From assembly GCA_049696635.1 (NCBI GenBank), contig JBAVUF010000160.1:1-48648 (forward strand): a DNA stretch of 48,648 bases, written 5' to 3'. Position numbers and translations under genes: made by a program. The stretch comes from Acidimicrobiales bacterium (GTDB lineage: Bacteria; Actinomycetota; Acidimicrobiia; Acidimicrobiales; Bog-793). Positions 3,179 through 21,692 of the stretch are shown one piece after another; position 1 is the first letter of the stretch, and the number at the start of each line of letters is the position of its first letter. The notes beneath the pieces were generated by a model. The model was not told where the DNA came from, did not search any database, and saw nothing but the letters and a program-made list of their open reading frames with translations.

Positions 3179-5143
<1,965 letters not shown>

Positions 5144-5513: not shown

Positions 5514-5692
5514 GCGCGCTGCTGATGCTGGTTCCGGGCGAGCATCACCTTGGTAAAAAATGCCGCCCGGATCGTCGCTCGTCGTGGTAGCGCACGCTAC
5601 GACAGGCCCGTATCAGATGGACATAATGGACAAAGTGCCCAACGGAACCGCACGTGAGAGATTTATAGGCGTCTACCTGGACGTTTCCCATA

Positions 5693-5738
5693 ACCTTGCC
5701 AAGGTGAGGGTCGCGGGTTCGAGTCCCGTCGTCCGCTC
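5693..5738 (+). repeat. tRNA-Gly(GCC) 3' half, copy 1 (att-core-like; not a complete tRNA)
   Basis: ACCTTGCCAAGGTGAGGGTCGCGGGTTCGAGTCCCGTCGTCCGCTC. It reads as anticodon loop TTGCCAA, then GGTGA, variable loop GGGTC, T arm GCGGG/TTCGAGT/CCCGT, and acceptor 3' strand CGTCCGC plus T. CCA follows at 5738-5740. No GCGGACG acceptor 5' strand or D arm lies upstream. Confidence 0.8.
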
Positions 5739-5745
5739 CAAAAAC

Positions 5746-7184
5746 GGGTCTTCGGATTCTGGCGGGGGTCGAACGTGTTCATCGAACGACGATCGATCCG
5801 AGCACCCGCCAGTTCGGCTTGCCTGCATAGAGCAACGCCCGGATCCGGTAGTTCTCGAAGTTCCTGAAGCCGAAGCCGATCCGCTTGATGCGCTTCACAA
5901 GATTGTTGAGCGCTTCGGTCGGTCCGTTGCTCACCTTGGCGAGGTGGTAGTTGCAGATCTTGTCGAACCAGCGCTCGATCGTTTTGCCGAGACGCTGGAT
6001 CTCGGGTGGCATCGCCTTCTTGAGACAGTGGGACACGAGCTCTGAGAGCAGCTTTTTCGCCTCGTCGGCATCGTCGGTCTTGTAGAAGTCACGCAGGCGC
6101 TCTTTCACCCGATAGGCGATCGCCACCTCGGCACCCGGATCGCCGAGTGCGAGCAGCGACCACAGGCGCTCGCTCCGCTCTGTGTCGAGCTTCTCCTCGC
6201 CCATTAACAGCGTCCGCCTCACCCGATACAAAGGGTCGTCTTTTCGCCCGCGGTGATGGAGCTGTTCGATCTGCACCCGCCGGCGGATCTCGTCGAGACA
6301 ACGATTGGCGAGTGAGACGGCGTGGAAGGAGTCGACCACCTGGTGAGCCTTCGGCAGAACGACCGAGTAGACCGCCGCGTAGGTGGCCGACATGTCGAGT
6401 GCTCCGAATCTGATTCGCTCCTTCCAGCCCTTTTCCTGCTTGTGCAAAAAGCCCGCCACCTCGGTGAAGTTGCGCGAGGGCAGGATGTCGATGATCTGGT
6501 GGTGCTCGACGTCACAGACGGTCGTCGCGTAGTCGCGATGACTGTGGGATGAGAGCTTCACGAACGAGGTCTCGTCTAATCCGATCGCCGTCGTCTTGTT
6601 CAGCCGCTTGCGATCCGCCGCCAAGAGCGCTTTGCCGTAGGTGGTGACGGCGTCGTTCACGGTGTGCCAGTCACAGTCGAGCTCTTTTGCCACCTCCGAG
6701 ACCGTCCGTCCGCCGCCGACCTGCATCGTCGCCCACTTGGCGGCCCGGGTCGTGAGCAGACAGTTCTTTGCCGCGATGCGGTGGTCTTTGAGGACGAATG
6801 ACCTCCTTTCACAGTCCGGTTCGACGCAGCGCATGCGGTGCTTTTTCCACGAAAGGCGCATCGGCGTGCCATAGACGGGGAGATCGATGTAGGTGACGAC
6901 GGGACGCTCTTTCACCTCGGTGTGACCACGACAGGAGGGGCAGCGGACGTCGCCAACTACCTGCTCGATCAGCAACTCGACGTCCGGCCCGCGGCGTTTG
7001 TAGTGCAGGACCCGGACGTCTTTGAGGCCCACCAGCGCCTGGAGGATCTCGCTAGCGTGCGTGAGGACGAAGGTGCTTCGTGTTTGGTTGGTCACACTCC
7101 AAGCTTGGAGCGCCTTCGTTTCACTTTTCGAACCCGGCCCGAGCGCGGGCTAGCCGCTAACTCCCCGCTGAGATCCGAAGACCC
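5746..7184 (-). mobile_element. ISL3-family insertion sequence, apparently intact (1439 bp)
   Basis: The terminal inverted repeats are GGGTCTTCGGATTCTGGCGGGG (5746-5767) and the reverse complement of CCCCGCTGAGATCCGAAGACCC (7163-7184); the outer 12 nt are identical. The element is flanked by an 8-bp direct duplication CCAAAAAC (5738-5745 and 7185-7192) and carries a single transposase ORF. Confidence 0.9.
5779..7095 (-). CDS. ISL3 family transposase
   Basis: 438 aa. It has an N-terminal zinc-ribbon CPSCRGH...C..PDC and ISL3 blocks: GLDETSFVK, ALDMSATYAAV, QVVDSFHAVSLANRCLDEIRRRV, NGPTEALNNLVKRIKRIGFGFRNFENYRIRALL. Confidence 0.95.
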   Translation of the reverse strand: MTNQTRSTFVLTHASEILQALVGLKDVRVLHYKRRGPDVELLIEQVVGDVRCPSCRGHTEVKERPVVTYIDLPVYGTPMRLSWKKHRMRCVEPDCERRSFVLKDHRIAAKNCLLTTRAAKWATMQVGGGRTVSEVAKELDCDWHTVNDAVTTYGKALLAADRKRLNKTTAIGLDETSFVKLSSHSHRDYATTVCDVEHHQIIDILPSRNFTEVAGFLHKQEKGWKERIRFGALDMSATYAAVYSVVLPKAHQVVDSFHAVSLANRCLDEIRRRVQIEQLHHRGRKDDPLYRVRRTLLMGEEKLDTERSERLWSLLALGDPGAEVAIAYRVKERLRDFYKTDDADEAKKLLSELVSHCLKKAMPPEIQRLGKTIERWFDKICNYHLAKVSNGPTEALNNLVKRIKRIGFGFRNFENYRIRALLYAGKPNWRVLGSIVVR

Positions 7185-7192
7185 CCAAAAAC

Positions 7193-7275
7193 TCGCAGGT
7201 CACACTCGCAGGTCACACTCGCAGGTCACACTCGCAGGTCACTCGCAGGTCACTCGCAGGTCACTCGCAGGTCAG
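7193..7275. repeat. tandem array: 3 x TCGCAGGTCACAC (13-mer), 3 x TCGCAGGTCAC (11-mer), 1 x TCGCAGGTCAG
   Basis: Read directly from the sequence. There are seven head-to-tail copies of the core TCGCAGGTCA. The array starts immediately after the right target duplication of the IS, so before the IS insertion it began 8 nt after tRNA-half copy 1. Confidence 0.95.
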
Positions 7276-7332
7276 GGGCGGGTCAGGGCACCGTTTTCGT
7301 TTCCTCGCGCCGTGGGTCCATTTAGCGCAGTC

Positions 7333-7425
7333 CATATAGCGCGATGTCTGGCGGGTCCTGGGACTTGACACATATAGCGCGATGCGAGGCAGTTGGAATT
7401 GACCTGGAATTGACCTGGACGTTTC
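7333..7425. promoter_or_regulatory. second repeat cluster upstream of the AEP-helicase gene
   Basis: CATATAGCGCGATG occurs twice (7333-7346 and 7371-7384). TGGAATTGACC is tandem x2 (7394-7415). ACCTGGACGTTTC follows at 7413-7425 and matches 5675-5687 at 13/13 positions. The function (origin, arm sites or operator) is inferred. Confidence 0.5.
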
Positions 7426-7726
7426 GATGCGATCATCACTACGCACAGGTTTGATGCCGGATCCCCCTGAGCGGTCAGCCGCACGATTTCAATCTTCAGC
7501 TGGCGCACTGTGGTGATGACGTCCGACTTGGTAGCGGTTCGTAACCGTTCCACGAAGACCGACCACGCGAAGCTCTGTGCCGGCCACGTTACTGAGCTTC
7601 GTGTCCGGAGCTGCATCGCCGCCTCACCGCGGTGAGCGCCAAGCACAGGATGGACAAAGAGCTTCATCGAGCACCACCTGAAGCTCCACCTGGGGCGACC
7701 CTCAAGAGGAGCGATCCGCGGGCTGC

Positions 7727-10147
7727 GTGACGCGAGAATGTCAGGTGGTGAAGGCGCCAAGTAGTCGAGACGGCGCAGTGGACGAAGTTGTCGCGGCTTT
7801 ACGGCTCCGCATTGTCGAGCTGGAGGCTGAGAACGCGCGATTGCGACAGCTTCTCGATCACGACCACGCAAATCGCGGGCGATCCATCGCAACTTGGAGC
7901 CCGCGGCTCGTTGACCTCTCGCCATCGATACAGCGAGCTCCGGTTGACCACACCTCATCTCCGGCGGAAAAAGTCGCGCTCTTTCGCTCGCTTTTCCGGG
8001 GTCGCGAGGACGTCTACGCGATCCGCTGGGAGAACGCCAGGACCGGAAAGCACGGCTGGAGCCCAGCAGTGCGCGGTGGTGCAGCGAATGCTCGCAGACC
8101 GGACAGAGAGCTACTGCCGCTCACTGATGACGTCGTCACCGGTCATCTCCGCGGCGAGATCGAGATCGGCATGTATCCCCTTCTGCGCGATGACCATTGC
8201 GCCTTTCTCGCCTGCGACTTCGACGGCGCGAGCTCGGTGCTCGATGCCCTTGCCTTTCGCGACGCGGCGACCGCATCGGGCGTACCTTCCGCGATCGAGA
8301 GGTCTCGATCGGGTGCGGGCGCGCACGTCTGGATCTTCTTTGCCCAGCCCGTTCTGGCTGCGGACGCGCGGCGGATCGGCTTTCACCTCCTCCGGGAGGC
8401 GATGGCGGCTCGGGTAGAGCTTGATCTCTCGAGTTACGACCGTTTCTTTCCTGCGCAGGACCTACTGCCGAAGGGGACTTACGGAAATCTCATCGCGCTT
8501 CCGCTCCACAGTCGGCATCGTCGGCACGGCGCAACGATTTTCCTGGACCCAAAGACGCTTGATCCCTACGGCGATCAGTGGGAATTTCTTTCGTCGCTCC
8601 AATTGATGTCTGCCGAGCAAGTTGGCTCACTGGCGGCGCAGCTCGAGGATGTCGGAGCCGGACCGGAGGCCGCCACGTACCGCCGGTCGCGACTTGCGAC
8701 GGCGAATGACGTCAAGCCACCAGAGCGAGTGGTCGCGAAGGCCGGCGCGATGCTCGTCATCGACCGAATTGGACTTCCTCCCGCATTGGTCGCGTCACTC
8801 AAGCACCTAGCGTCGCTGCACAACCCGAAGTTCTACGAGAACGAGAGCCTCCGGTTCTCGAACCACGACACGCCGCGCTTCATTCGTTGCTACCAGGAGA
8901 GCCTCGGTGAGCTACTCGTGCCTCGAGGCCTCGAAGAACAGGCAAGCGCGATCGTTCAAGCAGCGGGGAGCCGTCTCGAGGTCCGCAAGGATGCGCCGCG
9001 AGCACAGCCTCAAGGCTTCGAGGTCAGCATCGCGCTGACACCAGAACAACAACGCGCGTTCGATGCGCTCGCCGGCCACGACCTCGGGGTGTTCGTCGCG
9101 CCGCCCGGAGCTGGCAAGACAGTGCTCGCGTGCGCGCTGATCGCCCATCACGACACACCAACCCTTGTGATCGTCGACCGCACGCCGCTCCTCGATCAGT
9201 GGCGAGCGCGTCTCAGCTCGCATCTGGGGCTCTCGGCAAGAGAGATTGGGCAATTGGGCGGCGGTCGCGACCGTCAGATCGGCAAGGTCGATCTCGCGAT
9301 GGCACAGAGCCTTGCTCGACGAGAGGACCTCGATGAACTCACGGCCGGCTACGGCTTCGTCGTGGTCGATGAGTGCCATCACGTCCCGGCGGTCACGTTT
9401 GAACGATGCGTTCGGCAGATACCCGCACTTCGATGGCTCGGCCTGACTGCGACGCCGTACCGCCGTGACGGATTGCAAGGTCTCATCAACATGTACTGCG
9501 GGCCGACGCGCGATGACGCGACCAAGCGTGACGCCCGCAGAGAGGCAATGCGGCTCCATCTGGTCGTTCACGAGACCCGACATGCTGAAGTCGATGACGG
9601 GCTCGGTATCCAGGAGACCTTTCGGCTGCTGGTCCAAGACGACGATCGCACCGATCAGATCTCTGCCGACGTGGTCGCCGCCAGAGATCGCGGGCGCAAT
9701 TCACTCGTCCTGACACAGTGGACGGAACATCTTGAGAGGATCGTCGAGTCACTCAATCGAAAGGGCGTCCAGGGCTTGGTACTCCGCGGGGGTATGGGCA
9801 AGAAGGCACGGGCAGCGGTCGTCGATCGTCTTACCGAGATGGGACTCGGCGCGGGCGAAGTACTCGTGGCGACCGGTGGCTATCTGGGCGAAGGTTTTGA
9901 CTGCCCGCAACTCGACGCGCTCTTCCTCGCGTTTCCGATCGCCTACAAGGGGCGGCTCATTCAGTACGTCGGTCGGGTCATGCGCGTTGCGCGTAGGAAA
10001 ACGGTTGTCGAGGTCCACGACTATTTGGACCGACAAGTGCCGGTGCTCCAACGGATGCACGGGAAGCGACTTCCCGTTTTTCGCGATCTCGGCTTCTTGT
10101 CGGCAGACTCCCAGCTCGAGGGCGCCCGCCTGCCCGGGGTTAGGTGA
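7727..10147 (+). CDS. archaeo-eukaryotic primase (AEP/PrimPol-like) domain fused to an SF2 helicase
   Basis: 806 aa. AEP motifs: LACDFDGAS (D164/D166), SGAGAHVWIFF (H200), SSYDRFFPAQD..YGNLIALPLH. Helicase motifs: APPGAGKT (Walker A), VVVDECHH (DECH), LGLTATPYR, QYVGRVMR. The N-terminus is heptad-like (LRLRIVELEAENARLRQLL). The exact start is uncertain (track start GTG 7727). Confidence 0.85.
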   Translation: MTRECQVVKAPSSRDGAVDEVVAALRLRIVELEAENARLRQLLDHDHANRGRSIATWSPRLVDLSPSIQRAPVDHTSSPAEKVALFRSLFRGREDVYAIRWENARTGKHGWSPAVRGGAANARRPDRELLPLTDDVVTGHLRGEIEIGMYPLLRDDHCAFLACDFDGASSVLDALAFRDAATASGVPSAIERSRSGAGAHVWIFFAQPVLAADARRIGFHLLREAMAARVELDLSSYDRFFPAQDLLPKGTYGNLIALPLHSRHRRHGATIFLDPKTLDPYGDQWEFLSSLQLMSAEQVGSLAAQLEDVGAGPEAATYRRSRLATANDVKPPERVVAKAGAMLVIDRIGLPPALVASLKHLASLHNPKFYENESLRFSNHDTPRFIRCYQESLGELLVPRGLEEQASAIVQAAGSRLEVRKDAPRAQPQGFEVSIALTPEQQRAFDALAGHDLGVFVAPPGAGKTVLACALIAHHDTPTLVIVDRTPLLDQWRARLSSHLGLSAREIGQLGGGRDRQIGKVDLAMAQSLARREDLDELTAGYGFVVVDECHHVPAVTFERCVRQIPALRWLGLTATPYRRDGLQGLINMYCGPTRDDATKRDARREAMRLHLVVHETRHAEVDDGLGIQETFRLLVQDDDRTDQISADVVAARDRGRNSLVLTQWTEHLERIVESLNRKGVQGLVLRGGMGKKARAAVVDRLTEMGLGAGEVLVATGGYLGEGFDCPQLDALFLAFPIAYKGRLIQYVGRVMRVARRKTVVEVHDYLDRQVPVLQRMHGKRLPVFRDLGFLSADSQLEGARLPGVR

Positions 10148-10288
10148 CGACGTGGTCCAAACAGATTGCACCGCGCCATGGAGAGTTCGACTTCGTTGCG
10201 GTCGATCTGGCGCGGCCGGAAGCGAGGAGAGACGGGCTCTGCGCGTTGGTATCCCGTTTCGAACGCGTGCTCTGCATCACCCGTAGAT

Positions 10289-10855
10289 TCAGAGGAGAAC
10301 TGCTCCGAGTGCGTCCGCGGTCCTCGGAAGTCCGCGCTGACGAACAATGTCGATCGCGTCCGTCATCGTTGTGGGTGGTTTGCGAAGATCGTTCACTTGC
10401 TCTTGGAACACTGTCGCGACAACTGCGGGATTGAGATCGAATAGTCCCAACACGAACTCGTCCGGATGCACGGCTTCGATGTCGAACGGAACCAGTGCCT
10501 CTTCGGGGAAATCCGAGAGGTTCTCGGTAACGATGGCTTGGGCTTGCGCCTTGATTGCACAGGCAACGACGTGACGATCCTTGGGGTCTGGAAGGACGAC
10601 CGCGTCGATCAATTGCCGGAAGTCCGTCACGAGGCAGTCGGCCACTGATTCGTTCATCATCTCCCGTGTGCGTTGCAAGCGATGTTCGTCGAGATCGGGC
10701 CGCCGGCGCAGAATCGACCGCACCATTTCGTCCAGAATCTCGTCGGACCGGTGGGCACGGAAATTCAGCTGCCGCTTGGTCGCGCAGCGGATTAACAGAT
10801 CTCGGATTGCTGGATCGTGCAGCACACAGGCGTCGTAAACGACGACGTAGGCCAC
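10289..10855 (-). CDS. PIN-domain protein (putative toxin ribonuclease)
   Basis: 188 aa. The N-terminal VVVYDACVL, the PDPKDRHVVACA block and the TENLSDF block match the usual PIN acidic-residue spacing. It lies 8 nt downstream of a DNA-binding partner gene. Confidence 0.75.
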   Translation of the reverse strand: MAYVVVYDACVLHDPAIRDLLIRCATKRQLNFRAHRSDEILDEMVRSILRRRPDLDEHRLQRTREMMNESVADCLVTDFRQLIDAVVLPDPKDRHVVACAIKAQAQAIVTENLSDFPEEALVPFDIEAVHPDEFVLGLFDLNPAVVATVFQEQVNDLRKPPTTMTDAIDIVRQRGLPRTADALGAVLL

Positions 10856-10863
10856 GAACCGAC

Positions 10864-11334
10864 CTACGACTTGTAAAGGCCGAGCTCTTCCGCCTCCCGT
10901 GTCAACGTGCGTTGCCTCTCGCGGCGTTGTTCCTCGTCCGCTCGTTGGTAAGCCAGAAGATCGGCCAGCCGAACCCGGCGGTGCGTGCCGACCTTCCGGT
11001 AGGGAAGGGCACCCGCTTCGAGGAGACTGATTAGATAAGGTCGAGAGACGTTGAGCAGCTCCGCTGCCTGTTGCGTGGTGAGTTCTTGATGAACCGGAGC
11101 CACCACAACCGCGTTGCCCCTCGCAAGCTCGTCGAGCACATCGATGAGGAGCCTGAAAGCAGGTGCGGGGATGTTTACCTTCGTCTCAGGTGCATCGTCG
11201 ACCACGAGCACGACGCGTCCGGACGGTGTCGGGTGGCGTCGTAGGTGGGTTGCCAACGCCTCGGCAGCGTCGGCAGCCCAGGCAGTGGTCTCATCATCTG
11301 GGATTGTCAGGTCTTGCAAATTTACGGCGGGCAT
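10864..11334 (-). CDS. excisionase-type HTH DNA-binding protein (putative antitoxin of the PIN gene; alternatively an Xis)
   Basis: The C-terminal HTH is LTTQQAAELLNVSRPYLISLLEAGALPYRKVGTHRRVRLADLLAY. I chose ATG 11334 (MPAVNLQDL). The 218-aa track ORF extends upstream into the tRNA-half region, and that extension is unlikely to be coding. Confidence 0.7.
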   Translation of the reverse strand: MPAVNLQDLTIPDDETTAWAADAAEALATHLRRHPTPSGRVVLVVDDAPETKVNIPAPAFRLLIDVLDELARGNAVVVAPVHQELTTQQAAELLNVSRPYLISLLEAGALPYRKVGTHRRVRLADLLAYQRADEEQRRERQRTLTREAEELGLYKS

Positions 11335-11540
11335 GTCGCGAGTCTGACACAGGGATATATCAAACGCAATAGACGAAACAAACGAATCAGACGAAACCGG
11401 GTCGGTCAGGTCACCGAACGCCAGCACGTAGCAGACCCGTCTACAACAAGGCGCAGGTATTCGGGCCACCTCGGTGGACTGTCGGGGCGACTCAGCCGCC
11501 CTCCAGGCCGCGCAAGGCAACTAGCTGGACGTTCGCAAGC

Positions 11541-11612
11541 ACCTGCCAAGGTGAGGGTCGCGGGTTCGAGTCCCGTCGTCCGTCGTCGTCCGTCGTCGTC
11601 CGTCGTCCGCTC
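11541..11612 (+). repeat. tRNA-Gly(GCC) 3' half, copy 2, with an internal microsatellite expansion
   Basis: ACCTGCCAAGGTGAGGGTCGCGGGTTCGAGTCCC, then GTCGTCC GTCGTCGTCC GTCGTCGTCC GTCGTCC, then GCTC. Relative to copies 1 and 3, one T of the anticodon loop is missing and 27 nt are added inside the acceptor strand. Confidence 0.8.
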
Positions 11613-11613
11613 G

Positions 11614-11905
11614 ATGTCCGTATCGGTCTGAGTATCGGTCTGAGGTGACCCGGATTGATTCCATGGCCGAGATGCTCTTTGAACTCCTCCATGTGTCAGC
11701 CGTTGTGAATGAGGATTGTGGCCCAGATGTGGCGCAGGTCGTGAAACCTCAAGCCTTCGGGTAACGCATTGGCGACTCGGCCCTCTTCAACTGCCCTCAT
11801 TCGAGCCTTGCGAACTGCAGGGCGAAAATGTCGGCCATTGAAATTCTTGTAACGAAGTGGTCGGATTGAAATACGTCTATCAAGCTGTTCGGTGGTTACG
11901 AACAC
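11614..11905 (-). pseudogene. tyrosine recombinase (phage-type integrase) remnant: C-terminal catalytic part only, with an in-frame stop
   Basis: The remnant reads ...LPEGLRFHDLRHIWATILIHNG-TGA(11696-11698)-HMEEFKEHLGHGINPGHL. Box II (HxLRH) and LGH are present. The N-terminal two thirds, including box I, are missing, and no catalytic Tyr context is recognisable. The reading frame runs on into tRNA-half copy 2. Confidence 0.7.
11620..11643. repeat. tandem 12-mer GTATCGGTCTGA x2
   Basis: Read directly. It lies 7 nt after copy 2, inside the 3' end of the integrase remnant. Confidence 0.85.
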
Positions 11906-11992
11906 CGAGCGGACCTTGGTGCGGCTTTCCTCTCGAGCTGACGGACGATTAAGACCGACCGCATTGTCAGGGATCTGGAGCGCGAAACTGAA

Positions 11993-12928
11993 TCAGTCAA
12001 TCGACGACTCGGGTCCTGATGTGTCGGATCTCCAATCGACGTCTGACAGTTCGGCCAGGGCAAGGACCAGAGCATGGGTGCCCTTTTGGCCCCGCCCTTG
12101 TCCACTCGCGGCGATGTAAAGCTGCTCGGCGAGGGCGAGCCCGGGCAAAGAAAGGTTCATTCGGCGAGCCTCACCAAGCGCGATGCCAAGATCCTTGACG
12201 AAGTGCTCAATCTTGAATCCGGGCTCAAAGTCGCCTCGTAGAACGCGTGGACCGTAATTGGTAAGGGAAAATGACGCAGCTCCTCCGCTGCCAATCGTGT
12301 CGATAACCCTTGAGACGTCCAAGCCTGCCCGGAAGGCATATAGCAATGCCTCGCACACCCCTACCATGCCGGAGGCGATCGCGATTTGATTGACCACCTT
12401 TGTGTGCTGACCAGCACCCGGTCCACCTTCGAATGTCGCCTTGCCGAGCCGCTCGAAGATCGGTCGGGCCTGGTCGAACACTTCTTGCCTCCCACCCACC
12501 ATGATCACCAACGTCGCGTTGCGAGCGCCGATGTCTCCTCCTGAGACCGGGGCATCGAGAGAGTCGACGCCCTTGAGCAAGGCTGCGTCGTAAATCTCTC
12601 GTGCGAGCTGTGGCTCGCTCGTTGTCATGTCGATGATCGTCGTTCCCGCTTTCGCCGAGCCGAGCACTCCTCGGTCTCCGAGGATCACCTCGCGGACATC
12701 GGCTGGATATCCGACCATCGTCACCACCACAGCCGCGCCGTCGGCCGCTTCTTGAGGGGATTCACACCACTGTGCGCCCGCGTCGATCACGACCCGAGCT
12801 CGCTCCCTGGTCCGATTGAAGACTCTCACGGGATAACCGGCAGCTAGTAGGTGCAGGCACATCGCGGCACCCATCACGCCTGTGCCGATCCACGCCACGC
12901 TCGATCTCTCTTCGCTCACCACGGTCAC
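11993..12928 (-). CDS. NAD(P)-dependent beta-hydroxyacid dehydrogenase (3-hydroxyisobutyrate dehydrogenase family)
   Basis: 311 aa. It has the N-terminal Rossmann motif VAWIGTGVMGAAMCLHLLAAGYPVRVFNRT, DAPVSGG, and the GAGQHTKVVNQ family blocks. Confidence 0.9.
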   Translation of the reverse strand: MTVVSEERSSVAWIGTGVMGAAMCLHLLAAGYPVRVFNRTRERARVVIDAGAQWCESPQEAADGAAVVVTMVGYPADVREVILGDRGVLGSAKAGTTIIDMTTSEPQLAREIYDAALLKGVDSLDAPVSGGDIGARNATLVIMVGGRQEVFDQARPIFERLGKATFEGGPGAGQHTKVVNQIAIASGMVGVCEALLYAFRAGLDVSRVIDTIGSGGAASFSLTNYGPRVLRGDFEPGFKIEHFVKDLGIALGEARRMNLSLPGLALAEQLYIAASGQGRGQKGTHALVLALAELSDVDWRSDTSGPESSID

Positions 12929-13110
12929 TTCTCCCGAGGTCTCCTTTCAGGCGTGCTGCACTTCAATGATGAGTCCACGTCTATCCGATCAATACTTATA
13001 CGCGACGAAGCTTGAAGGTTTTGCTGGCTGCATCAAAGACAGGTCAACAACGACTTGCGAGAAGTGCCCACCTGAAGCGCGCATCGTTGGTCACTCCTAA
13101 AGCAGGACCG

Positions 13111-13433
13111 TTACCCGTTACCCCAGCCCTGCGCTTCGGCGGCGGTAGCGGACCGATGTGTGAAACCGGCGGGGATTGGAGCGTTTAGCAGAGCGCGGTT
13201 CGCTTCGGTCGCGGACAACCAGTGGAACTCGCCCTGCGAGACGATCTTTCCGTTGACTCTGACCGCCAGCCGTAACGGGAGGTACTCGTCGAATCGACCC
13301 AGAAGTCAAGAGACGTGTTGCCAGGGCTCGAAGACGTGGCCGTAGACGAGAGTTCGGTGGCCCGCCGCCCATTGATGATGGTGTTGCCGACGATCGCGAC
13401 GATGCCGCTCTTCAGATAGTGCTCGATGACAGA
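13111..13433 (-). pseudogene. frameshifted C-terminal remnant of an unidentified gene
   Basis: Coding-looking pieces lie in three minus frames: KVASVIEHYLKSGIVAIVGNTIING, then RTLVYGHVFEPWQHV, then RFDEYLPLRLAVRVNGKIVSQGEFHWLSATEANRALLNAPIPAGF...GWGNG-stop (13111-13113). No start is present, and I cannot name the family. Confidence 0.3.
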
Positions 13434-13457
13434 CGCGACCTTTTGCGACACGCCGCG

Positions 13458-13669
13458 CGCTGGGAGAACACCCGCAGCGGCAAGCACGGTTGGAGCCCTG
13501 CGGTGCGCGGCAGCGTACAGAGCGCTCGCAAGCCAGATCGAGAGCTACTGCCGCTCGCAGATGACGTCGCTACGCTCAGGTTGTCGGCGATAACGAGATC
13601 AGGATGAGTGCCCTGCTGCGAGATGATCGTTGCGACTTCCTTGCGAGCGACTTCGACGGCGCTGGCTCG
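13458..13669 (+). pseudogene. decayed fragment of a second AEP-helicase gene (paralog of 7727..10147)
   Basis: RWENTRSGKHGWSPAVRGSVQSARKPDRELLPLADDV matches RWENARTGKHGWSPAVRGGAANARRPDRELLPLTDDV at 29/37 positions. After a frameshift, LLRDDRCDFLASDFDGAGS matches LLRDDHCAFLACDFDGASS at 15/19. Weaker resemblance may continue to about 13760. No helicase part follows. Confidence 0.75.
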
Positions 13670-13836
13670 GACCCGTACAGGTTTCCCGCGGCGGCAATCA
13701 CCGTATCTTCGCTCTCGTTCGACGTGGACGCGGCGAAGGTCCGTCACCGCGCCGAGCACGTCGTGAACACCGTCCGCGATATCACTCGATCGCTCGGCGC
13801 CCCCTCACTCGGACGCGCGTCATAGACATACAGCCC

Positions 13837-14646
13837 GTGGCGCTCTCACCTGAACGGCGGGACCAGGATCTCGAGCGCCTCGTCGCCCGCCCGCTCGATG
13901 TCCTCGTCGTCGGCGGGGGGATCACCGGGGCTGGTGTGGCGCTCGACGCGGCCAGCCGCGGACTGTCGGTCGGCATCGTCGAGGCGCGCGACTGGGCGTC
14001 CGGCACATCGAGCCGTTCGAGCAAGCTCATCCACGGCGGTCTTCGCTACTTAGAGATGCTCGACTTCCGCCTGATCCACGAGGCCCTGAAGGAGCGCGGC
14101 CTGTTGCTCGCGCGGATCGCGCCGCACCTCGTCCAGCCGATCGCGATCCTCTATCCGCTGCGTCGGCCCGTGATCGAGCGGGCGTATGTCGGCGCGGGTG
14201 TCGCTCTATATGACCTACTTGCCTCGTCGAGCGCAACGACTAGGGGCCTGCCTTTCCATCGGCATCTCTCCCGGAACAGCGCGCTCAAGGTCGCCCCAGG
14301 CCTTCGGCCCGGCGCCCTCGCGGGCGCGATCGAGTACTACGACGCCCAAGTCGACGATGCCCGCTTCGTCATCGAGACCGTGCGCACCGCGGTCGCGCTT
14401 GGTGCGATCGCAGTGAGCCGCGCAGAGGTCCTCGGGTTCGCCCGAGAGGACGGGCGCGTCGCGGGGGCGGTTGTTCGCGGCCTTGAGAGCAGAAACGAGC
14501 ACCACGTTCGCGCTCGCACCACCGTTGTCGCGACGGGACCTTGGACCGAGGAGACCGAAGCGCTCGCCGGCCACGAGCACGCCGTGCGGGTTCGGCCCTC
14601 GAAAGGCGTCCATTTACTCGTCCGCCGGGACACGGCGGCAAACTGA
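13837..14646 (+). pseudogene. glpD: glycerol-3-phosphate dehydrogenase (FAD, GlpD-type), N-terminal half only
   Basis: From GTG 13837 it reads VALSPERRDQDLERLVARPLDVLVVGGGITGAGVALDAASRGLSVGIVEARDWASGTSSRSSKLIHGGLRYLE ... RPSKGVHLLV, then a stop after about 270 aa. The usual C-terminal half is absent; only frameshifted traces may remain to about 14780. Confidence 0.7.
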
Positions 14647-15018
14647 ACTGGATAGTCGAGCGCACGACGCGTGTGCGCCGCCCGCGGCGAGGTGTCTACG
14701 TTTCTCGCCCCGTCGCGGGCGTTTCCGTTCGGGACAAACGGCGCGCGTTCTAGTCCATGCCGTTCGTCCCGGATACTTCTGAACGATTACTTGAAGACAA
14801 TTACTCGGCCCTCGTCTCGTCTACTCAGTCGCTTGGCATTGCGTTAACTTCCAGTTCACTGCCTGGCTCCCCCCGAACAACGGATGTCCATCTGGAGAAT
14901 GATGGAAATTCAATCCCTGCGGACGATGACAGACGATCTTCGCCAGCTCACGATGGAGTGAGGCAAGAACGGAACATATAAGTTCCGAGCATGCGGATGA
15001 GCTGAGCTGGAGGCAACG

Positions 15019-16395
15019 GTGATCAATCGCCTGACATCTCGGCACGGTCGGAGTGTGGTGCGTTACTTGGCGGTGGGTCTCGCGCTGACTGTGGCGACCG
15101 CCGTCAGCGCGGCGGATCCTGCGACGACTGCGTCTGCCTCTTCCAAACCGGCCCGTAGCTCGACCGCCGACTGCAGTTCGCTGGCGACCTGCTACACACC
15201 GCACGATCTGCAAGTCGCCTACGGCATCCTGCCGTTGCTCGACCGCGGGATCAACGGCAGAGGCGAGACCATCGTCCTCCCCGAATTGGCTGAGCCGCAG
15301 TTCCCGCTTCCGACGAGCGACATTCGCCAAGACCTCGCCGCATTCGACAAGTTGTTCGGCCTCACGCGGGCGAACCTACGGTCGGTGACGACCCTTGCCC
15401 CCGGGGCGTCACCGTGGCTGGCAAATGGCGAAGAAGTGCTCGACACCGAGGTGGTGCACGCCATCGCGCCGGGGGCCGCGATTGTCGAAGTCCTCGTCCC
15501 CGCAACCTCTCTCAACAGCATCGCAAATGCGGTTGCTGCCGCCGTCTCGGCAGTGAAGCTCGGTTCCTCGCTCGGGGGAGTCATCTCGATCAGCGCCGCT
15601 GGTCAGACCGGCGGTGAACACTGCGACACCCATTCCCAAGTCGCCGCGCTGCACGCGGCCTTGCAACTCGCCGCGAAGGAACACGTGACGGTGGTCGCTG
15701 CATCCGGCGACGTCGGAGCCGTCGGCGAACCCTGCCAATTGATAAAGGGCTTGATCGGAGGTGTTTTCGCCCCGGTGAAAGAGGTCAACTTGCCGGCTGA
15801 GGATCCACTCGTGCTCGCCGCCGGAGGGACGACCCTAACCCTCAACCGCAAGACGGGCGCTTATGAAGGCGAAGTCGCTTGGGGGCTGCCATTCGGAGAC
15901 CCGGGCACTCAGTTCCAGGGGTCAGGCGGCGGCCTCGGGCACGTTTTTTCCCGGCCCGACTATCAGAACGGTGTGCCCGGCATCGGCGCGTACCGGGGGG
16001 TGCCTGACGTGGCCGCGAACGCCTCCCCGAGTCCCGGGTTTCCGGTTGTCACGAGCACCCGCAGCGGCCAGTACATGATCACTGGCCACGGAGGCACGAG
16101 CGCGAGCGCCCCGACGTGGGCAGGCATTGTCGCTCTGGCCAACCAGTATGCCGGGCGCCACCTGGGCTTCGTGAACGCGGCGATCTACCGCATCGCCCGC
16201 AGCCCCCTTTACCACAAGGCGTTCCACGACATCACGAACGGGAACAACTCGGTCAGTTTCCCGCCGAAGACGATCAAGGGCTACCGAGCGACATCGGGAT
16301 GGGACGCCGTAACGGGCTGGGGCAGCCCCGTCGCAAGCGCGCTCGTACCCTTGCTCGTTCGTGACGTCCATCCTGACGACGCCAACGGACTGTGA
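15019..16395 (+). CDS. secreted S53 (sedolisin/kumamolisin-type) serine peptidase
   Basis: It has a signal-like N-terminus and the sedolisin blocks GEEVLDTEVVHAIAPGA, ASGDVGA and GGTSASAPTWAGIVALANQ. GGAGG lies 5 nt upstream of GTG 15019. Confidence 0.85.
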   Translation: MINRLTSRHGRSVVRYLAVGLALTVATAVSAADPATTASASSKPARSSTADCSSLATCYTPHDLQVAYGILPLLDRGINGRGETIVLPELAEPQFPLPTSDIRQDLAAFDKLFGLTRANLRSVTTLAPGASPWLANGEEVLDTEVVHAIAPGAAIVEVLVPATSLNSIANAVAAAVSAVKLGSSLGGVISISAAGQTGGEHCDTHSQVAALHAALQLAAKEHVTVVAASGDVGAVGEPCQLIKGLIGGVFAPVKEVNLPAEDPLVLAAGGTTLTLNRKTGAYEGEVAWGLPFGDPGTQFQGSGGGLGHVFSRPDYQNGVPGIGAYRGVPDVAANASPSPGFPVVTSTRSGQYMITGHGGTSASAPTWAGIVALANQYAGRHLGFVNAAIYRIARSPLYHKAFHDITNGNNSVSFPPKTIKGYRATSGWDAVTGWGSPVASALVPLLVRDVHPDDANGL

Positions 16396-16487
16396 GAAAC
16401 ATTGTGACGTGCGAAGCGACCCGACCGCTCTGTCATCGCGCCGTAATTGTGAACAATCAATTGGGTTCTATTAAACGCGAGTCGTGT

Positions 16488-16792
16488 TCACTCGAACTCC
16501 TCCGGGGCGTACCCTCCCACCAGGCGCCCGCATTCGTTCAAACTGGCTATGAAATGGGGCGAATGCGACGCAGCGTTCGGAAATACCGGCTTTAGTGATA
16601 TCGAACACAGGCCCATAGGAATCGGTTGGTGGGGTCGGGGAAATTCGGCACCCCATGGGAGCGCATGCACCGGGCGAGCTTCAGGTCGCCGTTCAGCACC
16701 TGTTGCACCAGGGCGCGTGGGCAGTCGCTGTTCACCATGCATTGGTGTTCTTGTTGTTGGATCGACCCCCTCGCGGGCGCGGATGAACACAC
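16488..16792 (-). pseudogene. frameshifted small Cys-containing protein gene (CMRSHGVPNFPDP family, function unknown)
   Basis: One frame gives ...LKLARCMRSHGVPNFPDPT. A second frame continues ...SPHFIASLNECGRLVGG. Together they resemble a motif pair I recall from small secreted actinobacterial proteins. No signal peptide is present. Confidence 0.35.
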
Positions 16793-16825
16793 TGCTTAAT
16801 TGTGCAGATATATGTGCGCGATTAG

Positions 16826-17269
16826 TCAGGCACCAGCTTCGAGACGCTCCTTCAGCCGCCGCTGGTCTTGTGGCACCAATTTTCTCGACTGGCTTCGTGC
16901 TATCGGCGCTACGAGCTTGCCGAGCAAACCGTGTCCTTGAAGGTCGAGTTCTATGGTGACTCTTGAACTGCCTGTCCCGACAGGATCGACGGTCACCGTT
17001 CCGACAGGTCGCACTGGTCCGTTCGTGCCTTTGAAGGAAGCCCTTCTCGGAGGGTCGTGCTCCGTGATCTCGTACGTGACGCTCCGCTTGCCACCTGGCA
17101 CCTTGCGGACGTCTGTTACGCGGGTGCCAACGCGCGTGGGTCCATCGGTTTCTTTCTTTGAGCTAACGATCTGGGACTCAAATTCGCCGTGTCGTTCTAG
17201 CTGATCGAGATAGGCGAACACGTCCGCAGGAGTACGTGCGATCTCCACACTGTTCACGATCTTTGGCAT
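16826..17269 (-). CDS. SRPBCC (polyketide cyclase/START-like) family protein
   Basis: MPKIVNSVEIARTPADVFAYLDQLERHGEF...YEITEHDPPRRASFKGTNGPVRPVGTVTVDPVG fits the SRPBCC pattern. I prefer the internal ATG 17269 over the track start 17392. Confidence 0.75.
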   Translation of the reverse strand: MPKIVNSVEIARTPADVFAYLDQLERHGEFESQIVSSKKETDGPTRVGTRVTDVRKVPGGKRSVTYEITEHDPPRRASFKGTNGPVRPVGTVTVDPVGTGSSRVTIELDLQGHGLLGKLVAPIARSQSRKLVPQDQRRLKERLEAGA

Positions 17270-17484
17270 GTTCGTGAGCGTGACGGTTGGAACATGAAAA
17301 GTCAATAAGGGATTAGGAGGCGGCGTAGGTTCCACAGCTATCTGTCTCCGATTAATAGAGTTCAAGTAAATGCGGAAGTCTTCGCAATCCACGACAGACA
17401 GTTCGTCTGGTGGATGCCGATTCGCCGTCGGCGCTCGGCTCCGGGAATCGGGTGCAGTCGACTTCCGAGAGCAAGACTGTGCGA

Positions 17485-17958
17485 ATGACGAATCCCAGCT
17501 ACTCAGAGTCGACCGTGATCGCCCGTCCGGCAGAGTTGCTCTATGACATGGTCTCCGACGTCACTCGAATGGGCGAATGGAGTCCAGTTTGCAAAGCCTG
17601 CTGGTGGGACGAGGGCGATGGCCCCCGAGTGGGTGCTCGGTTCACAGGTCGCAATGAGACCTCTGAACGAACGTGGGAAACACGTTCGGAAGTCGTGGCG
17701 GCAGATCGAGGGCGCGAATTCGCGTTTGTCGTTGGTGACTCATGGGTTCGTTGGGGCTACACGTTCACCCCGGATGAAGGTGGGACGAAGGTCACTGAGT
17801 CATGGGAGTTCCTCCCGGCTGGTATCGCACGATTCGAGCAGCGATTCGGTGGTGACGCTCTCGCCCAGATTGCTGATCGAACCGAGGCTGCCCATCAGGG
17901 GATTCCAGCGACCCTTTCTGCAATCAAGAGGGCAGCAGAATCGGGTGGCGCTACGTGA
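17485..17958 (+). CDS. SRPBCC family protein
   Basis: MTNPSYSESTVIARPAELLYDMVSDVTRMGEWSP...WETRSEVVAADRGREFAFVV...WGYTF fits the family. I prefer ATG 17485 over the track start 17410. Confidence 0.75.
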   Translation: MTNPSYSESTVIARPAELLYDMVSDVTRMGEWSPVCKACWWDEGDGPRVGARFTGRNETSERTWETRSEVVAADRGREFAFVVGDSWVRWGYTFTPDEGGTKVTESWEFLPAGIARFEQRFGGDALAQIADRTEAAHQGIPATLSAIKRAAESGGAT

Positions 17959-18189
17959 TCGTGCAGATATGTGAGTTCATTTAATTCAGTTCAAGTAAAC
18001 GCAGGTCCGGCGACTGCACAGCTGCACAGCTGCGCGTCAAGCGCTAATGCGAGCCATTCGTAACGTGCTCGCGACAAAGCTTCCGACGAGAATCGGGTCA
18101 TCGCAGAGAGAGCTAACCGATCGGGTCGCCACGAGCATCCGCACGACGAGCCGAACCGTCACGATGACGAGCACGGTTTTGGCCACTTT

Positions 18190-18420
18190 TTGCGCGACTT
18201 GATCGCACCTCACTCGCACGACGCAACCGACTCACTCGATCAGGCGCTCGAATCCAGCACCGATGGGATTCGAGCGGTTGCCTTGTGGCTCGTCATTCTC
18301 CTCGTCACGGCCGGGATCGAAGCTCTCGTCGTGGCGGCGACCGGATCGGTAGCCCTCCTCAGCGACACTCTTCACAATGCTGCCGACGCGCTAACAGCCG
18401 TGCCGTTGTGGCTCGCGTTC
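18190..18420 (+). pseudogene. cation diffusion facilitator (CzcD-type) transporter, first ~77 codons only
   Basis: ...HSHDATDSL...GIRAVALWLVILLVTAGIEALVVAATGSVALLSDTLHNAADALTAVPLWLAFTL is a CDF TM1-TM2 region including the HxxxD-type motif. The gene stops being CDF-like exactly where tRNA-half copy 3 begins. Confidence 0.7.
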
Positions 18421-18466
18421 ACCTTGCCAAGGTGAGGGTCGCGGGTTCGAGTCCCGTCGTCCGCTC
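18421..18466 (+). repeat. tRNA-Gly(GCC) 3' half, copy 3
   Basis: 46/46 identical to copy 1. With the two preceding nt (TC) it makes a perfect anticodon arm, TCACC-TTGCCAA-GGTGA. The 3' end reads ..CCGCTCGA, so no CCA is encoded. No acceptor 5' strand or D arm lies upstream; CDF coding sequence is there instead. Confidence 0.8.
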
Positions 18467-18536
18467 GAAGAACTCCCAGCTCAGAAGCCTAATTCAGCAT
18501 CGTTTGAGGCATTGATTTGCGGATAACGGTCCTTCT

Positions 18537-18569
18537 TGACCCAACTGTGACCCAACTGTGACCCAAACG
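18537..18569. repeat. tandem 11-mer TGACCCAACTG x2 plus a degenerate third copy TGACCCAAACG
   Basis: Read directly. It lies 70 nt after copy 3. Confidence 0.9.
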
Positions 18570-18745
18570 AGTCGCCGAGGCAAGCGCTAACGGGAAAGTT
18601 CGGCGAGAGCATCGGCGATCATTCGATCTCGGTCCTCGGCATGATCACCGGCGAACGATTTTCCCAGGCAGTTGGCGAGCTGAGAAGATCTGGGGTGCGC
18701 CGTGGTGGGAAGCCGGAGTACTCGAAGACGTCCGAGAAGGACGCC

Positions 18746-18925
18746 GTGACGAAAACCATCTCCGACGCAGATTCGCGACACCCCGTCAACTGCAGCTTCT
18801 GTGGCAAGTCGCAGAATCAGGTCAAAAGGATCGTCGCTGGACCCGATGATGTTTACATCTGCAATGAGTGCGTCGATCTCTGTTTGTTACTAATGGCCGA
18901 ACCATCCGATGGCGCCGGGACATAA
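18746..18925 (+). CDS. stand-alone ClpX-type C4 zinc-finger protein (or N-terminal remnant of clpX)
   Basis: [31 protein letters not shown] matches the ClpX N-terminal zinc-binding domain, with the CxxC...CxxC spacing. No AAA+ module follows. I prefer GTG 18746, preceded by GAGAAGGA, over the track start 18641. Confidence 0.55.
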
Positions 18926-19141
18926 ACGTAGATCAGCTCGTCGTCGGCATACTCGGGCGCAATTAGTCGATTGCCGAATCCGCTCACCGTTTGATAATGC
19001 CTTGGTGGGGTGACGCCGACGTGTCGTTGGTGGGCACTCGATAATCGGTGGGTGCGCTCCGTGTAACTGCATCCTTAATCAACTTGCCGTCGTGCTGATG
19101 GAGGCTGGGGAAGGAAGGTCCTCCGGAGCAAAGGCGCTCAA

Positions 19142-19612
19142 CTAACTCCTGATCAGATACAGCTCGACCGTGCCGCTGTTCGAGTTGACGACGTTCAGTT
19201 CCTCACTCCAGCCGTTGCCGAAGTTCTTCGTGTGCTTCCCAGGTGCACCGGAAGTGAACACGTTGTTCGTCCAGGTTCCTGCGGACTTGCCGATGTAGTA
19301 ATCGGCGAGCGCAATCATCGTGATGCCGCCCATCAGCAACTGATCACTCGTGGCGTTGTCAATGTGCAGATACCACAAAGAGATCCCTTTCGGCGCTGCA
19401 AGCGCCTTCCAGGCCATGCCTTCCTCGTTAATGGCGCACGTTCCGTACATTGCGTGGGCGCCGTCGTCAGTTACGGACCGCCAGTGCAAGCCGGGGACGT
19501 TCGCATTGATCTTCGCCTGTTCACTCGACACGTTTGTCGAGGCTCCCGCTGTCGTCACGGCAAGCATCAACGTCATGCCCACGATGACGAGTCCTACGAC
19601 GAATTTCCTCAT
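19142..19612 (-). CDS. secreted hypothetical protein
   Basis: 156 aa with a clear signal peptide (MRKFVVGLVIVGMTLMLAVTTAGA). I recognise no family. Confidence 0.6.
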   Translation of the reverse strand: MRKFVVGLVIVGMTLMLAVTTAGASTNVSSEQAKINANVPGLHWRSVTDDGAHAMYGTCAINEEGMAWKALAAPKGISLWYLHIDNATSDQLLMGGITMIALADYYIGKSAGTWTNNVFTSGAPGKHTKNFGNGWSEELNVVNSNSGTVELYLIRS

Positions 19613-19849
19613 CTCTGCTCCTGCACAGAACGCTCGTTGATAGCTCTGAAGGACCTCAATTTAAGAAGTTGCGTTTCGTCAACGATGATCCAGCGAGTAT
19701 GCGAGCGCATCGGCAATTTTGAAGATGAGGGAATGCGAACCGCAAGTCCCTATTCAAACGAGGGATTTCACGAAGAGCATCGACTCGACTACGGAATGTG
19801 CTCTTTGTGATCGAAACCTCGCCGTGTCTGCGCTAGCGAGAAGATTGAT

Positions 19850-20017
19850 TTACAAGACGCTGACCAACAATAAAAGTACGAGCGATAGCACGATGATTAC
19901 GACAAGAACAGCACGCCACGGATGGCGGCGTCGAGGAACGTCCTCGTGATCATCGTCCCAGTCCCAAAGATCGGGGTCCTTCGGGTCCCGGGGTACGGGA
20001 CCCACGGGCGTCGGCAT
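19850..20017 (-). CDS. small single-pass membrane protein (hypothetical, 55 aa)
   Basis: Below the track's size cut-off. My translation is MPTPVGPVPRDPKDPDLWDWDDDHEDVPRRRHPWRAVLVVIIVLSLVLLLLVSVL: an acidic N-terminus followed by one TM. Its ATG lies 6 nt after the stop of the upstream 147-aa ORF. Confidence 0.3.
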   Translation of the reverse strand: MPTPVGPVPRDPKDPDLWDWDDDHEDVPRRRHPWRAVLVVIIVLSLVLLLLVSVL

Positions 20018-20023
20018 CGACCG

Positions 20024-20467
20024 CTAAAGGTCGATCTCGATCGACTGACCTTGCCATTCGACCGTCAACGACTTTGCGTCCGTGTGCGCATGCTCATCTT
20101 CGGACTTCGAGGGAACGAAAAACCTCCTACCCGCCAACTCGCCAGCCGCTTTTCGCTCGAAATCACTCAGTGCCGACACGTGTTGAGGCCCACCTTTGAA
20201 CGAAACCTTTACGATCGCACGTTCTCGGCCGCGTCGAATTGATTCGCCGAGTGGTCGCATTCGGACTCTCGCAGACTTTGCGGAATAAGGACCCGGCCGT
20301 GCAACCGTGGGACCTTCGACAAGTTCACCGACATCGGGAACACCAGAGAGACGCCACATCACTTCGATGCCATCGTCGTAAAGCAATACTCCGACGACAC
20401 GGAACGTAATTCCTTGTGAGGTGAGAGTCTCCGAAGGTCCTGAGATGGCCTTTAACGGGTGCGCCAA
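20024..20467 (-). CDS. hypothetical protein (147 aa)
   Basis: An ORF with no recognisable motif. The TTG start is uncertain. Its 5' end abuts the truncation point of the serine-recombinase fragment. Confidence 0.45.
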   Translation of the reverse strand: MAHPLKAISGPSETLTSQGITFRVVGVLLYDDGIEVMWRLSGVPDVGELVEGPTVARPGPYSAKSARVRMRPLGESIRRGRERAIVKVSFKGGPQHVSALSDFERKAAGELAGRRFFVPSKSEDEHAHTDAKSLTVEWQGQSIEIDL

Positions 20468-20794
20468 GTGCTCGGAGCGATCTCGCAGTACGAGCGTGCC
20501 GTGATCAAGGGCCGCATGATGGCGGGCAAAGCGGCAAAGGTCGCAAGTGGCGGCTACGGCGGTGGCAGACCGGCGTTCGGCAAAGCGGCGAAGGACAAAT
20601 CATTCGTCGGCGACATTGAGGAGCGCCAGACGATCGAGCTGATCCGTCGACTTCGTAGCGAGCGATTATCGCTGCGCCAAATTGCCGGATATCTCGAACA
20701 GGCGGGGCTGCACTCGAAATCAGGGCAACACTGGTACCCAACACGGGTAAAGCGAGTGCTCGACAGAACTAGCGACGCAAGATCAAAGTCTTGA
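20459..20794 (+). pseudogene. serine recombinase fragment (end of the resolvase domain plus part of the recombinase domain; catalytic N-terminus missing)
   Basis: RQVLGAISQYERAVIKGRMMAGKAAKVASGGYGGGRPAFG matches the E-helix end of the resolvase domain. LIRRLRSERLSLRQIAGYLEQAGLHSKSGQHWYPTRVKRVL matches the recombinase-domain HTH. The catalytic Ser region is absent. Confidence 0.7.
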
Positions 20795-20947
20795 AGTCAG
20801 CGACCCCGCTCGCTACGACTAGTTCGATTTGCTCAACTTGAGTTGGCTCTTTCGAGCTAATTCCAACCTTTTTCTTTCTCTTCCCACTACGACGACGTCA
20901 AACTCCAACGAGTTGGGGCTCCCCAACAAGAGAGAAGGAATCGGACA

Positions 20948-21670: not shown

Positions 21671-21692
21671 CGCTCAGACAGCTTCGTAACCG

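Follow-up and report, generated by a model that had tools for sequence, protein, structure and literature searches.

How does a stretch of bacterial DNA come to carry three copies of the 3' half of a tRNA-Gly(GCC) gene, all on the same strand, and no 5' half for any of them? The question is raised by the 48,648 nucleotides of contig JBAVUF010000160.1 (assembly GCA_049696635.1, Acidimicrobiales bacterium), analysed here at full length as "the window". We consider it likely, with a probability of about 0.8, that the three blocks are the attachment (att) cores of small integrative elements that target tRNA-Gly, and that the tandem array to which these elements belonged has since decayed. An initial annotation, made from the sequence alone, had likewise read the blocks as tyrosine-integrase att cores in a pile-up of decayed elements, a reading now supported by an integrase remnant in the window, by tRNA halves that bracket related genes in other genomes and by an intact tRNA-Gly(GCC) gene in a relative.

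The block is defined by the 46-mer ACCTTGCCAAGGTGAGGGTCGCGGGTTCGAGTCCCGTCGTCCGCTC, which has two exact occurrences in the window (copies 1 and 3; Table 1), whereas 100 shuffles of the sequence gave an expectation of 0. Copy 2 reads TGCCAA in the anticodon loop where the 46-mer has TTGCCAA, and the 27 extra bases in its acceptor 3' strand belong to an array of 3.4 copies of the decamer CGTCGTCCGT (Tandem Repeats Finder, TRF). The block spans the tRNA from position 28/29, in the anticodon stem, to position 73 or beyond. An intact tRNA-Gly(GCC) gene is found in a related Acidimicrobiales genome (comparative locus L005, 8932-9006; 74.2 bits on the Rfam tRNA model), and it consists of GCGGACGTGGCTCAGTGGTAGAGCATC followed by the same block, identical at 45 of 46 positions with a single difference in the T loop. 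The particulars given in the initial annotation thus hold: the two exact copies, the missing T and 27-nt expansion of copy 2, the CCA after copy 1 and the parse as the 3' part of tRNA-Gly(GCC) are all confirmed, and the acceptor strand GCGGACG that it had predicted for the intact gene is carried by the gene in L005. It had also foreseen that the 46-mer might prove to be a high-copy dispersed repeat with no relation to integrases or element boundaries. A metagenome scan with the 46-mer matched at least 120 stretches, and among the 80 loci fetched from these 75 are ordinary intact tRNA-Gly genes and five are orphan halves; the 46-mer is therefore no element-specific dispersed repeat. The earlier statement that no copy is a complete tRNA is upheld as well: ARAGORN and the Rfam model find no intact tRNA in the 48.6-kb contig, the sole call (18394-18466, at copy 3) being spurious for reasons given below.

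The second body of evidence comes from the relatives of the hallmark gene of unit 1, as we call the stretch between copies 1 and 2 (5739-11540). The gene encodes an archaeo-eukaryotic primase (AEP) domain fused to an XPB-like superfamily 2 (SF2) helicase (PF22548 AEP-TOTE, E = 3e-77; ResIII; Helicase_C; PADLOC PrimPol, 1.5e-83). The homologue search, with a threshold of E <= 1e-10, scored only 8,000 candidates, so that the 7,737 homologues recovered are a lower bound; the source names given point to metagenome-assembled genomes (MAGs) of Acidimicrobiia and other Actinomycetota. The comparative set comprises 81 loci, namely the window and 80 of 84 fetched loci, two redundant and two tandem-copy loci having been left out. 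Across the 80 genome loci tRNA T-arms are enriched about 20-fold close to the gene: their density is 1.17 per 10 kb up to a distance of 3 kb, falls to 0.06 at 3-6 kb and is 0.05 inside the gene itself. A T-arm is present up to this distance of 3 kb in 35 of the 81 loci. In ten loci direct repeats of 40-50 nt, each a tRNA 3' half, enclose the helicase gene; the tRNA concerned is not the same everywhere (Gly-CCC, Pro-GGG, Met, Arg-ACG or Thr-GGT), and the halves can face either way with respect to the gene. One of the repeats lies within an intact tRNA gene in L004, L005, L032, L038, L048 and L083, and of 18 intact tRNAs near the gene 16 have their 3' end directed towards it, as expected of integration at a tRNA 3' end. 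L005 holds the closest homologue in the genome collection, 76% identical and 1 kb downstream of the intact tRNA-Gly(GCC) (metagenome homologues are up to 84% identical). Intact tyrosine integrases stand between core and helicase gene in L024, L027, L032 and L048, an integrase follows tRNA-Gly(GCC) immediately in L164, and the tyrosine integrases of L017 and L079 are frameshifted. Integrase and/or helicase genes are split by frameshifts at L017 7192-8441 and 10055-12268 and at L079 4609-5949, so that decay in progress is seen in relatives.

Orphan halves are also the only tRNA sequences in the arrays around the homologues of L010, L017, L024, L034 and L079; the flanks examined there reach only 4-5 kb, and an intact tRNA may lie further out. 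Two helicase copies or fragments occur within about 5 kb of each other in L015 (1855-6713) and L060 (6451-12316), with a 264-nt repeat at 94% identity between them in L015; these double copies are likely to be tandem elements of the AEP-helicase family. Full-length homologues, 33-41% identical, are also present on some two dozen predicted viral or proviral contigs of IMG/VR (L216-L239). A search among the conserved neighbours of the helicase gene for a novel recombinase returned only variable toxin-antitoxin (TA), Abi, Fic and AAA modules and occasional integrases, and iterons upstream of the helicase gene were rejected as a family trait, as the short repeats follow att cores.

Table 1. Features of the window on which the argument draws, with positions and strand.
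Feature	Position	Strand	Remarks
Arm motif (P-arm-like remnant) left of copy 1	5667..5692	+	Contains CTGGACGTT
Copy 1 of the tRNA-Gly(GCC) 3' block (putative att core)	5693..5738	+	Exact 46-mer, CCA follows
ISL3-family insertion sequence	5746..7184	-	Directly after copy 1; transposase 5779-7095
Tandem 13/11-nt repeats ACTCGCAGGTCAC, about 7 copies	7191..7285	+	TRF score 126
AEP primase-polymerase + XPB-like SF2 helicase gene, 789 aa	7778..10147	+	Hallmark gene of unit 1
PIN_3 gene	10289..10855	-	Pfam, NCBIfam
HTH_17 excisionase-type DNA-binding protein	10864..11520, start uncertain	-	Pfam, NCBIfam
Arm motif left of copy 2	11515..11540	+	Similarity to 5667..5692
Copy 2 of the block	11541..11612	+	One T deleted in anticodon loop; 27-nt decamer expansion in acceptor strand
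12-nt tandem repeat GTATCGGTCTGA, 2.1 copies	11620..11644	+	Right of copy 2
Tyrosine integrase C-terminal remnant	11640..11863	-	HDLRH...LGH, in-frame stop
Second AEP-helicase gene fragment, 213 bp	13458..13670	+	About residues 82-153
Cation-efflux (CDF) gene, N-terminal 77 codons	18190..18420	+	Pfam Cation_efflux; cut at left edge of copy 3
Copy 3 of the block	18421..18466	+	Exact 46-mer, no CCA
11-nt tandem repeat TGACCCAACTG, 2.7 copies	18537..18566	+	Right of copy 3
ClpX-zinc-finger mini-protein	18641-18925		Right of copy 3
Apparently secreted protein	19142-19612	-	No family match
Large serine recombinase fragment	20459..20794	+	Pfam Recombinase/Resolvase; 33% identical to L003 recombinase
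Apparently secreted protein	20948-21670	+	No family match

Within the window, the sequences on either side of the cores carry the history of the array further. The arms to the left of copies 1 and 2 are identical at about 18 of 26 bases, including CTGGACGTT, which occurs in the window at 5677, 7415 and 11525 only (0.42 occurrences expected), and similar arm sequence precedes the orphan copies in L001, L114 and L120. The upstream similarity of these two copies, which had seemed odd, is thus real but short, and is explained as an element arm. Given this arm sequence, the left edges of copies 1 and 2 would be internal or attR-type junctions, and in the case of copy 1 the tRNA-proximal unit would therefore be missing. 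To the right, each of the three cores has a short tandem repeat of its own; the repeats differ from each other, suggesting three distinct elements rather than duplications of one.

Unit 1 consists of an insertion sequence, the AEP-helicase gene and a PIN_3/HTH_17 gene pair. The insertion sequence is a member of the ISL3 family, with a transposase (DDE_Tnp_ISL3, E = 3e-59) and terminal inverted repeats of 22 nt (5746-5767 and 7163-7184, 82% complementary), and its insertion has duplicated 8 bp of the target, CCAAAAAC, now at 5738-5745 and 7185-7192. An ISL3-derived insert of about 700 bp lies between tRNA-Gly(GCC) and the helicase gene in L005 (9012-9712); there, as in the window, the insertion immediately follows the CCA of the tRNA-Gly block, which suggests a target preference for this site. 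Before the insertion the ACTCGCAGGTCAC repeats directly adjoined copy 1; they are candidate arm-type integrase sites or origin iterons, and the helicase gene starts some 490 nt beyond them. A small open reading frame (ORF) separates this gene from the PIN_3/HTH_17 pair, which is likely, judging from its domains, to be a toxin-antitoxin pair forming an accessory module of the unit, and which is also found beside AEP-helicase genes at six other loci. Searches with 13 integrase queries and a local profile detected no trace of an integrase in unit 1 or to the right of copy 3.

The integrase remnant reported to adjoin copy 2 is real. Seven different integrases from related loci match 11650-11860 on the minus strand (tblastn), and the roughly 70 residues score E = 6.2e-6 on Pfam Phage_integrase (26.5 bits, just below the cut-off of 27.1) and E = 7.5e-5 on the local profile; the remaining upstream part is replaced by a dehydrogenase gene. 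Copy 2 and this minus-strand remnant have the same geometry as the intact tRNA and integrase of L032 and L164. The AEP fragment further to the right is 79% identical to 8024-8237 and 73% identical to L001, and with the integrase fragment it is all that unit 2 retains. The genes at about 13.7-18.4 kb (a DAO oxidoreductase, an S8-like protein, two SRPBCC proteins and the truncated transporter) look like ordinary cellular genes, and copy 3 is therefore probably a separate junction and not the right end of unit 2. The unit boundaries first proposed are to be adjusted accordingly.

The fusion of copy 3 to a broken coding sequence, another oddity of the initial annotation, is also real, and can be explained as a junction at the crossover edge: DNA homology to the intact transporter gene of a relative (L215) ends at 18419, at most 2 nt to the left of the block. 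A break at the expected place of strand exchange speaks for a recombinase acting at a non-tRNA site rather than for a random deletion, and copy 3 may accordingly mark a secondary-site integration. The 3' part of the transporter gene was sought in the window and not found. As for the array of TGACCCAACTG to the right of copy 3, a comparable 11-nt array stands at the same offset from the core in L001.

These observations can be ordered as follows. Small integrative elements of Actinomycetota (about 4-6 kb) would carry an attP site containing a copy of the 3' part of a tRNA gene, in this case the block from position 28/29 of tRNA-Gly(GCC) to its 3' end plus a few bases more. A tyrosine integrase would exchange strands at the 5' edge of the block, with the anticodon stem serving as inverted core sites; each integration would rebuild the tRNA and leave the displaced half-tRNA at the far end, and repeated integrations would give a tandem array with half-tRNAs between the units. 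The AEP-primase/helicase presumably replicates the excised circle. In the window the array would then have decayed, leaving unit 1 without an integrase and with an ISL3 insertion, and unit 2 as fragments only. The tRNA-proximal end, with the 5' half and the first unit, may have been deleted, may have been rearranged away or may lie beyond the end of the contig, and copy 3 would have been joined to the truncated transporter at the crossover edge by a secondary-site or illegitimate recombinase event. The initial annotation had found it odd that no copy reconstitutes a tRNA; the observation stands, and loss, rearrangement, secondary-site insertion, a unit beyond the contig end and assembly error are all candidate explanations for the missing 5' half.

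Several points weigh against reading the blocks as att cores of a decayed array. The window holds no intact tRNA and no intact recombinase. Unit 1 shows no trace of an integrase, and the units of L004, L010, L034, L078 and L083, which also lack one, keep perfect repeats, something that simple decay does not obviously predict. The transporter gene of L215 shows, to the right of the junction, no clear likeness to the anticodon loop. No empty site was recovered through the flanking yciI gene, a check proposed at the outset: homology of yciI with its relatives stops at 5520, 7 nt past the stop codon, and these relatives (77-86% identical) have unrelated neighbourhoods with no tRNA there. Finally, the contig is assembled from a metagenome, and the block at which its parts join is shared with the cell's own tRNA genes.

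The second of these points bears on the best of the alternatives, which we nevertheless regard as rather unlikely, namely that unit 1 and similar helicase/TA units never had an integrase and are att-flanked cassettes moved in trans by a co-resident element. Unit 1 is of the same type as the units of L004, L010, L034, L078 and L083, which measure 3.7-4.8 kb, contain only the helicase gene with toxin-antitoxin or Abi (AbiE) genes, are bounded by repeats of 40-45 nt that are 100% identical and have no recombinase within 10 kb; those of L004, L010, L034 and L083 have less than 300 nt to spare. The stretch of about 540 nt from core to helicase gene in unit 1 likewise shows no integrase similarity, and the recurrence of the PIN/HTH module was counted in favour of such cassettes. 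Against this, full elements with an integrase beside the helicase gene exist and the integrases of L017 and L079 are frameshifted, and decay is therefore directly observed; perfect repeats of 40 nt limit the age of a unit only weakly, and no helper element was identified. The idea can be carried further, to a form that we find doubtful: AEP-helicase and TA units would make up a distinct and widespread class of integrase-less Actinomycetota cassettes, integrated and excised in trans, with orphan halves as their landing pads, and this would explain the recurring arrays without an intact tRNA. In its radical version the primase-helicase would use the half-tRNA hairpin as an origin or priming site.

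Accretion at a single att site is familiar from Streptococcus, in which integrative and conjugative elements (ICEs) accumulate together with integrase-less, cis-mobilisable derivatives (CIMEs). The likeness lies in tandem att-bounded arrays in which some units have no recombination module of their own; in contrast to the ICE/CIME arrays, there are no conjugation genes here, and mobilisation in trans is only hypothesised.

It is less probable still that the arrangement is in part an artefact, with the assembler having joined non-contiguous flanks through the shared block of 46-53 nt. In favour of this, the window represents a metagenome contig in full, metagenomes contain the block in many places (the 120 or more stretches noted above), and L001 and L003 look like graph branches at the block: around a 75%-identical homologue, L001 and L002 share one context and L003 has another, the two being the same up to 5 nt past the block and unrelated thereafter (L001 and L003 are 99.98% identical up to the divergence point at 12674), which is due either to polymorphism of an insertion or to branching of the assembly at the repeat. 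However, the left junctions cannot derive from shared k-mers, because the arm motif at copies 1 and 2 and the transporter at copy 3 share none with the tRNA; the integrase and AEP remnants sit where the array model predicts them, the independent assemblies L001 and L002 agree, and MAG contigs built from long reads and hundreds of kb in length (L017, L024) contain similar orphan arrays.

We regard it as very improbable that the locus originally had its tRNA-Gly gene at copy 3 and that this gene has become a pseudogene through damage to its 5' half. The initial annotation had taken complete tRNA calls at the copies as counting against its reading, and ARAGORN does call a tRNA at 18394-18466, where the Rfam score of 30.3 bits just exceeds the gathering score of 29. 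The Rfam alignment, though, has an 11-position deletion in the D arm and two broken acceptor pairs, and no cloverleaf forms when the stretch is folded (z = -0.9; there is no acceptor stem in the minimum-energy structure), whereas the tRNA-Gly(GCC) gene of L005 does form one. The 27 bases upstream of copy 3 are cation-efflux coding sequence, translated as ...LHNAADALTAVPLWLAF, the conserved second helix of these transporters with its motif ...TAVPLWLAF. Copy 1 is not called by ARAGORN and reaches only 19.8 bits; copy 3 scores some 10 bits more because the transporter sequence GCCGTTGTGGCTC at 18406-18420 happens to resemble GCGGACGTGGCTC, the acceptor/D 5' strand of tRNA-Gly. We therefore reject the call, which fails on D arm, acceptor pairs, fold and coding overlap, and neither copy approaches the 74.2 bits of the real gene. 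The bases that would make up the damaged half encode the transporter motif, homology to L215 runs through them to 18419, and in a plus-strand array the original tRNA would be expected at the left end, not the right.

Equally improbable is that the half-tRNA serves the element itself, whether as a primer, an origin hairpin, a decoy or a recognition RNA that works with the AEP-helicase or the PIN nuclease, an idea that the initial annotation had offered, in a similar form, in second place. Seven loci do have a T-arm 210-285 nt downstream of the helicase stop codon, copies 1 and 3 show perfect conservation and the AEP domain is like that of CRISPR-associated primase-polymerases, but at least five different tRNAs are represented among the halves of the relatives, which can face either way with respect to the gene, the boundary of the block follows the classic att pattern from anticodon stem to 3' end, copy 2 has mutations in the loop as well as in the acceptor, and in 46 of the 81 loci a T-arm is absent up to 3 kb from the gene.

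If the blocks are att cores, the array resembles systems already on record; elements with AEP genes in tRNA islands and tandem arrays with half-tRNAs are described phenomena. A close parallel is offered by the tycheposons and related elements of Prochlorococcus tRNA islands, in which tandem elements are separated by partial tRNAs and integrases are fragmented; many of these elements carry primase/helicase replication genes, and a minority use large serine recombinases (bioRxiv 10.1101/2020.12.28.424599). Insertion at tRNA 3' ends, flanking partial tRNAs of about 40 nt, tandem units, stray halves and fragmented integrases are common to both. In contrast to tycheposons, the elements considered here belong to Acidimicrobiia and other Actinomycetota and have as hallmark an AEP fused to an XPB-like SF2 helicase, and the window holds no intact integrase and no full tRNA; the likeness is one of description only. 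Bacterial AEP genes on integrated elements with direct repeats, mostly at tRNA genes, were surveyed for the PrimPol-PV1 supergroup (Kazlauskas et al., 2018; PMC5862659); those elements use tyrosine or serine recombinases, and some of their AEPs are fused to helicases, whereas the protein of the window matches the Pfam AEP-TOTE and CRISPR-associated PrimPol models.

The match to PF22548 is a point of likeness to the TOTE conflict systems, whose name stands for TPR, OB, TBP and Effector in the statement of bioRxiv 10.1101/2025.09.15.676423 that cites Aravind et al. (2022). No TPR, OB/cold-shock or TBP partner was found beside the gene of the window, and none recurs in the 80 loci. We therefore reject identity with a TOTE system: the gene stands alone with variable TA/Abi modules, and the Pfam name describes the domain family, not the locus. 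A CRISPR-associated primase-polymerase was likewise dismissed, there being no cas-family match among the ORFs of 1-29 kb and no CRISPR-like array anywhere in the window.

The surroundings of the array are of two kinds. At 17000-22000, around copy 3 and mainly to its right, the G+C content falls to 55-58%, against 60-68% elsewhere, and this stretch, with its recombinase fragment, would seem to be what is left of another kind of mobile element. The recombinase of L003 to which the fragment is related is a large serine recombinase of 553 aa (12586-14247, minus strand), whose last 29 or so codons are antisense to a tRNA half. The ORF at 19142-19612 was considered as the counterpart of an ORF beside the transporter gene in L212, and did not match it. 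The flanks, by their gene content, look chromosomal: on the left an ABC transporter, PadR, thiC with a thiamine pyrophosphate (TPP) riboswitch and yciI, on the right a GAF protein and the pst operon. The riboswitch (3297-3418) scores 52.1 bits, just under the Rfam gathering score of 54.3, and is absent from the default scan; its position means that the thiC ORF (3182-5143) is over-extended at its 5' end. As thiC adjoins a core both in the window and in L001, we considered it as cargo of a core-bounded unit, and rejected this for want of a second core or a shared flank. Between the PadR gene and the ORF at 2290-2859 lies a perfect 46-bp palindrome (2257-2302; CAACCTCCCCTAACGGTTTAGTA / TACTAAACCGTTAGGGGAGGTTG), which could be an operator or a bidirectional terminator.

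For the annotation of the contig, the tRNA call at 18394-18466 is false, and the region from 5.7 to 22 kb is a decayed island and not a tRNA locus; likewise, the Pfam label "TOTE" on the primase-helicase does not imply a TOTE system. As a genomic island the locus is of an ordinary kind and of modest interest. The mobile elements of Acidimicrobiia and other Actinomycetota are, however, poorly described, and in these bacteria small elements that target tRNAs can be recognised by a protein of a very large family: the AEP-helicase element family is widespread and has been little described. Many of its units have no recombinase, being either decay products or trans-mobilised cassettes; if they are mobilised in trans, they would make a useful model for the way in which defence and addiction cassettes hitch-hike on tRNA att sites.

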